Below, piece after piece: positions 40,409 through 40,424 of a stretch of DNA of 64,000 nt. The first letter of the stretch is position 1. The number at the start of each line of letters is the position of its first letter. The stretch lies in NCBI RefSeq assembly GCF_003334405.1, contig NZ_QOWM01000007.1, one strand, 5' to 3'. This stretch comes from Escherichia coli. GTDB taxonomy: Bacteria > Pseudomonadota > Gammaproteobacteria > Enterobacterales > Enterobacteriaceae. Under the pieces are notes generated by a model. The model saw only the letters and a list, made by a program, of their open reading frames with translations, made no database searches and was not told where the DNA came from. The translations under genes were made by a program, and so were the position numbers.

Positions 40409-40424
40409 GTGAAGTCCTTGTGAA
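40409..40424 (-). promoter_or_regulatory. cre-tag (CreB-binding direct repeat) upstream of cbrA
   Basis: Minus strand reads TTCAC-AAGGAC-TTCAC, about 45 bp upstream of cbrA start. Confidence 0.6.

Follow-up and report, generated by a model that had tools for sequence, protein, structure and literature searches.

A conserved cre tag between cbrA and yidR of Escherichia coli is very probably the CreB operator of the cbrA promoter

The cre tag at 40409-40424 of the E. coli DNA analyzed here (the "window", a contiguous stretch of 64,000 nt to which all positions refer unless stated otherwise) is in all likelihood the CreB site of the cbrA promoter, and as such it is already known. From its sequence and its conservation across genera, we consider it highly probable that this operator is a PhoB-type activator site which replaces the -35 element, with transcription of cbrA predicted to start near 40386. 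Reportedly, cbrA (yidS) was found by way of this very tag in the work of Avison et al. in 2001, so that the operator would not be new. The gene name, which we take to stand for "CreB-regulated gene A", presumably reflects a gene that was defined through the tag at 40409-40424. The interpretation for cbrA is thus correct but already known, and the find matters little beyond confirmation. Three modest additions can be made. A cross-genus footprint widens the operator to two ACTTCAC repeats with a predicted -10 element at a distance of 10 nt, which amounts to a testable PhoB-like model of CreB action. Independent support is obtained for a start of yidR that the K-12 reference places 33 nt too far upstream. 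Finally, it can be predicted, and tested, that CreB binding and the use of a putative yidR promoter are mutually exclusive.

Bases 39200-41800 of the window are 100% identical to E. coli K-12 MG1655, and at least 80% of their length was matched in 5415 complete E. coli genomes. Coordinates in NC_000913.3 are obtained as 3909739 minus the window coordinate. In the RefSeq annotation the gene order is dgoT (+), cbrA (-), yidR (+, from 40463), yidQ (-) and ibpA (+). No known RNA family was found in the intergenic region of ~100 bp between cbrA and yidR (40363-40462). Further along, 5' of ibpA, a ROSE_2 RNA thermometer (RF01832, 100 bits) occupies 42251-42323 (+), and RefSeq annotates it likewise. 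The features of the region are collected in Table 1.

Table 1. Observed and predicted features of the cbrA-yidR region (window coordinates).
Feature	Position	Strand	Basis
cbrA (yidS), colicin M resistance FAD protein, begins MEHFDV	39298..40362	-	RefSeq annotation
Predicted cbrA transcription start (A), 7 nt past the -10 hexamer; about 3869353 in NC_000913.3	40386	-	position of the predicted -10 hexamer
Predicted cbrA -10 hexamer TAGTCT, exactly 10 nt downstream of the tag	40393..40398	-	TAnnnT conservation
Putative yidR -35 hexamer CTGAAA, its conservation restricted to the clade with yidR next to the tag	40403..40408	+	promoter scan
Core cre tag TTCACAAGGACTTCAC (TTCAC-N6-TTCAC), very probable CreB operator	40409..40424	-	sequence; conserved in 38 of 44 cbrA loci
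Probable extended operator, two direct 7-bp ACTTCAC repeats (40426-40420 and 40415-40409), 11-bp period, 7+4+7	40409..40426	-	conserved flanking A/C
Putative yidR -10 hexamer TATGAT, holding or overlapping the ATGs at 40427 and 40430	40426..40431	+	promoter scan; conservation
AGGA, Shine-Dalgarno sequence of yidR	40452-40455	+	sequence before the start at 40463
yidR, from its true start (MKQITF...)	40463..41677	+	PGAP; Ribo-seq and N-terminal peptide; cross-species frames

The plus strand reads GTGAAGTCCTTGTGAA at 40409-40424 and the minus strand TTCAC-AAGGAC-TTCAC, which matches the cre consensus TTCACnnnnnnTTCAC exactly. The sequence-only reading had reported these minus-strand letters, and they were the same when read again; its estimate of about 45 bp to the cbrA ATG agrees with our count of 46 nt to the ATG at 40362. 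It had also called the sequence a cre tag upstream of cbrA. This reading is upheld by a position and an orientation that are kept in 14 genus-level groups, together with the reported control of cbrA by CreBC.

In the 64-kb window, exact TTCACN6TTCAC sequences occur twice where 0.08 were expected, a count that was reached in none of 100 shuffles. One-mismatch tags, on the other hand, were not enriched (7 versus 4.3 expected). By our own arithmetic, ~9 exact tags should arise by chance in a genome of 4.6 Mb. An exact match by itself is therefore weak evidence, and it is position and conservation that bear the case. The literal tag sequences did not occur in a text search of the literature. The second exact tag of the window, CTTCACACTCCCTTCAC, is found on the minus strand at 12296-12281, 47 nt 5' of the cbrB (yieI) ATG (12233) and right behind the stop codon of the upstream gene.

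To follow the tag across species, we scanned one genome per species for CbrA and obtained 44 loci (L003 to L046) that encode a clear homologue. The tag was present in 38 of these 44 loci from other species, always in the same orientation and in 14 genus-level groups. It begins 55-64 nt before the cbrA ATG, with the exception of Intestinirhabdus, where it begins at -194; in Intestinirhabdus alba (L021, 2306-2500) a GC-rich insertion of ~130 nt lies between the tag/-10 module and the cbrA ATG. Thirty-one of the 38 tags are exact; in each of the other seven, the final C of one half-site is replaced by T (TTCAT). Over the 261 kb of cbrA loci, the 190-nt promoter zone before cbrA holds 31 exact tags, with 2 more elsewhere (0.5 expected), while one-mismatch tags outside the promoter zone are as frequent as chance would have them (14 versus 15 expected). 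The 2 exact tags off the promoter zone (L023 at 4259 and L028 at 4308) both lie inside the yidA coding sequence at the same position, and we set them aside as coding coincidences. The tag is absent from the Gilliamella loci (L033-L035 and L045) and from one Oscillospiraceae MAG. In L042, the region upstream of cbrA (about 2420-2470) contains TTTTACAAGACTTTAG, which looks like an eroded tag.

An information profile was computed from sequences anchored on the tag and weighted by the 14 genus-level groups. Peaks at or near 2 bits were obtained for ACTTCAC (columns -2 to 4), ACTTCA(C/T) (columns 9 to 15) and TAnnnT (columns 26 to 31), and the rest of the profile was at ~0 bits. The A and C that precede each TTCAC are conserved at 89-100% over the 14 groups. 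TAnnnT stands at a fixed offset in all 14 (T 100%, A 93%, final T 100%) between flanking columns of ~0 bits, and the first three or four positions of the classical 6-nt spacer vary freely. Because the preceding A/C and the TAnnnT lie outside the anchoring pattern, they constitute independent evidence. Within E. coli, 5186 of 5420 complete genomes share the same 40-nt core, and the remaining 234 have 1-2 changes in it; in the two variant genomes that were inspected, the changes fall outside the tag.

The comparison across genera also shows which of the two divergent genes owns the tag. Superficieibacter, Phytobacter, Kosakonia sp. S29, UBA3516 and Enterobacter sp. BIGb0383 have no adjacent yidR, and the tag and TAnnnT are still found at the same offsets. 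In these five, cbrA is flanked by yidA and by a divergent dgoR that has recognizable DgoR-type boxes upstream. The tag is thus kept beside a dgoR neighbor in place of yidR, which indicates that it belongs to cbrA. Linkage between cbrA and dgo is maintained in two different arrangements: in seven loci (L023-L025, L027-L029 and L031) the gene is inserted between yidA and dgoR and diverges from the promoter of the dgo operon, and in E. coli it is located at the operon's 3' end.

If TAGTCT is the -10 element of cbrA, the two ACTTCAC repeats span about -40 to -23. TAGTCT is a weak hexamer, and the promoter scan favored AATAGT, 2 nt upstream, with TTCACA as the -35. The layout of a tag, 10 nt and TAnnnT is common to cbrA and cbrB (TAAATT, 12270-12265, in the latter). 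The tag of creD, ACTTCACCGTCACTTCAC (L057, 4100-4117), which lies inside the 3' end of creC, has the same extended ACTTCAC repeats, but the creD promoter has no TAnnnT at +10 from the tag, and we therefore make no regulon-wide claim for the 10-nt rule. Distances from tag to ATG are 46 nt for cbrA, 47 nt for cbrB and 61 nt for creD. The creD promoter contains CATAGTCTT 20 nt downstream of its tag, and this sequence is similar to AATAGTCTT of cbrA.

CreB has a receiver domain (Response_reg, PF00072, E=2.9e-27) and a DNA-binding domain (Trans_reg_C, PF00486, E=7e-24). As a winged-helix regulator of the OmpR/PhoB family, CreB~P would bind the two ACTTCAC repeats head-to-tail as a dimer. It would then occupy the usual place of a -35 element, 10 bp upstream of the weak TAGTCT, and could recruit sigma70 RNA polymerase by direct contact. 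In this way cbrA would be turned on when CreC is active, much as a Pho box serves PhoB.

Published work is consistent with activation of cbrA through this site. CreBC has been reported to control cbrA positively, and CreB has been reported to bind the cre tag TTCACN6TTCAC in vitro. After 30 min of exposure to colicin M, cbrA was up by log2 4.3 and was co-induced with creD, cbrB and cbrC. In a mutant with activated creC, six genes showed a rise of more than 10-fold that depended on CreB, although the passage that describes them does not name them. A CreB iModulon was not found in our literature search, which also turned up neither a TSS map, a footprint nor ChIP data for 40409-40424, and the TSS data of Kim 2012 gave no match.

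The cbrA tag is very probably a site of the Cre regulon itself and differs in nothing essential from the other members. At creD and cbrB/yieI (Avison 2001, Cariss 2008), an exact TTCACN6TTCAC is likewise promoter-proximal and faces the CreBC-activated gene, and the tags of both share the extended repeat. In published descriptions of the Pho box, two 7-bp repeats separated by 4 bp stand beside the -10 element and replace the -35 element. The cbrA site resembles it in having two 7-bp direct repeats, a 4-bp spacer and an 11-bp period, would resemble it in its -35 place if the TAnnnT hexamer is the -10, and resembles it in having a winged-helix regulator of the OmpR/PhoB type. It differs in that the repeat is ACTTCAC and not CTGTCAT and the spacer is AAGG and not AT-rich; the regulator and the signal also differ, and the sigma70 contact is assumed in the case of cbrA. 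The blr tag of Aeromonas (BlrAB) and the cre tags 5' of creD in Pseudomonas and Stenotrophomonas have the same TTCACN6TTCA(C/A), which CreB orthologues recognize; the genes and taxa are different. For Stenotrophomonas, the regulatory logic of the cre tag has been reported as different.

It could be speculated that the same operator also governs yidR, as a shared switch. The promoter scan found 2 promoter-like sites in the region where 0.4 were expected, and one of the predictions is a divergent sigma70 promoter for yidR, CTGAAA-17 nt-TATGAT, whose spacer (40409-40425) consists of the cre tag plus 1 nt. Because the tag fills this putative spacer, CreB might occlude yidR: either CreB~P or the polymerase at PcbrA would keep polymerase off PyidR and so repress yidR for as long as cbrA is on. 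Such a role would add to the account given for cbrA and would not displace it. Several observations are in keeping with this possibility. At the DNA level, GTATGAT does not vary among 21 distinct sequences from Escherichia, Citrobacter and Pseudocitrobacter, whatever the reading frame, and the block that is invariant in this clade ends exactly at CTGAAA and TATGAT, the same positions varying freely in other genera. TATGAT lies 31-33 nt from the yidR ATG regardless of frame. The predicted yidR transcript would start at ~40438 (about 3869301 in NC_000913.3) and have a 25-nt leader that includes the AGGA. In two E. coli variants the hexamer has moved toward the -10 consensus, to TATTAT in ST95-32 and to TATAAT in PCP06171 (both through a change at 40429 that also abolishes the ATG at 40427). 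PCP06171 has in addition a C-to-A change at 40401, in the stretch that separates the tag from the predicted cbrA -10. There is also a precedent in ugpB, where an overlapping alternative promoter is reported to be inhibited by PhoB~P; there too one bound regulator would do both jobs, but the cbrA/yidR case is divergent, and PyidR is only predicted.

Other observations weaken this proposal. A yidR transcription start was not found in our literature search, and the expression of yidR follows that of the dgo genes. The putative yidR -10 is separated from the tag by ~20 nt or more in Buttiauxella, Enterobacter sp. ENT03, Phytobacter massiliensis and Kosakonia. Conservation within the clade could partly reflect a short divergence time. 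On the colicin M array, in which cbrA was ~20-fold up, the full list of genes with a change of at least 2-fold does not include yidR; its absence from that list argues against co-activation but does not test repression. On balance, we regard repression of yidR from the operator as possible but rather unlikely. The wider proposal, that CreB toggles the intergenic region, with cbrA (envelope protection) on and yidR (needed for growth on galacturonate and gluconate) off and with dgo read-through perhaps adding a further layer, is slightly less likely again.

Activation of both divergent genes by CreB from this single site is far less probable. The tag does lie between the two genes, and in some genera it stands roughly at the position of an upstream activator relative to the putative yidR -10. 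However, the repeats are direct and hence polar, and they always face cbrA; the tag persists where yidR is missing; in E. coli its place inside the putative yidR spacer is one for repression; and yidR is not co-induced with cbrA.

A different explanation for the conservation is that the DNA is coding sequence and encodes the first residues of an extended YidR, translated from 40427 or 40430. In the sequence-only reading, the tag was said to lie within a few bp of these candidate starts. ATGs in the yidR frame are indeed present there, 2 and 5 nt past the tag, and the curated NC_000913.3 record starts yidR at the equivalent of 40430 (415 aa), 33 nt earlier than 40463 (404 aa). They are not where yidR begins, though: the true start is 40463. 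REPARATION, which combined Ribo-seq with an N-terminal peptide, places initiation at 40463, 11 codons beyond the annotated start, and PGAP has the same start in K-12 as well as in the further strains that were looked at. In comparisons with distant genera, homology sets in at MKQ(I/V/L)TF. The ATGs further upstream are out of frame, or are then followed by in-frame stops, in Citrobacter and other genera, most genera having such stops. The distance from the tag to the yidR ATG is 36-39 nt across genera, which is not constant modulo 3, so the yidR reading frame is not kept. Natural variants of E. coli, moreover, abolish the ATG at 40427. With yidR starting at 40463, the tag is wholly intergenic, 38 nt upstream of the coding sequence and without any overlap with it, and a coding origin of the conservation can be considered extremely improbable.

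That the tag is a functionless chance match is hardly credible either: although ~9 exact tags are expected per genome and one-mismatch tags are not enriched in the window, the half-sites are invariant around a variable spacer and keep a fixed offset to the -10 and the ATG in 14 genus groups, exact tags in the cbrA loci are concentrated in the promoter zone (31 versus 2 elsewhere), and cbrA is regulated by CreBC.

Expression of yidR has been reported to correlate best with that of the dgo genes. The dgoR promoter (34439-34513) has three DgoR-type boxes, TTGTAGTACAA, TTGTACTACAT and TGGTACTACAA. A DgoR operator close to yidR was considered as the cause of the co-expression and rejected, as boxes of the TTGTAnTACAA type were found only at the dgoR promoter and none in 40363-40462. 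The convergent genes dgoT and cbrA share 4 nt, and a simple terminator scan near them gave 2 hits versus 1.8 expected (39241-39256, before the dgoT stop, and 40246-40262, inside cbrA). Since terminator hits occur there only at chance level, transcripts that run on from dgo, antisense to cbrA, could extend as far as yidR, which is on their strand. Membership of yidR and yidQ in the sigmaE regulon is stated in one paper. We did not adopt it, as the text of the cited sigmaE study mentions neither yidR nor yidQ, and no -35 of the GGAACTT type was seen by eye in the intergenic region.

In Phytobacter massiliensis, Intestinirhabdus and Enterobacter sp. ENT03, sequences like TATGCTGTACTAC precede the yidR ATG by ~45-60 nt. 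Their core, TGTACTAC, matches the DgoR boxes, which hints that yidR may be under direct DgoR control in these three.
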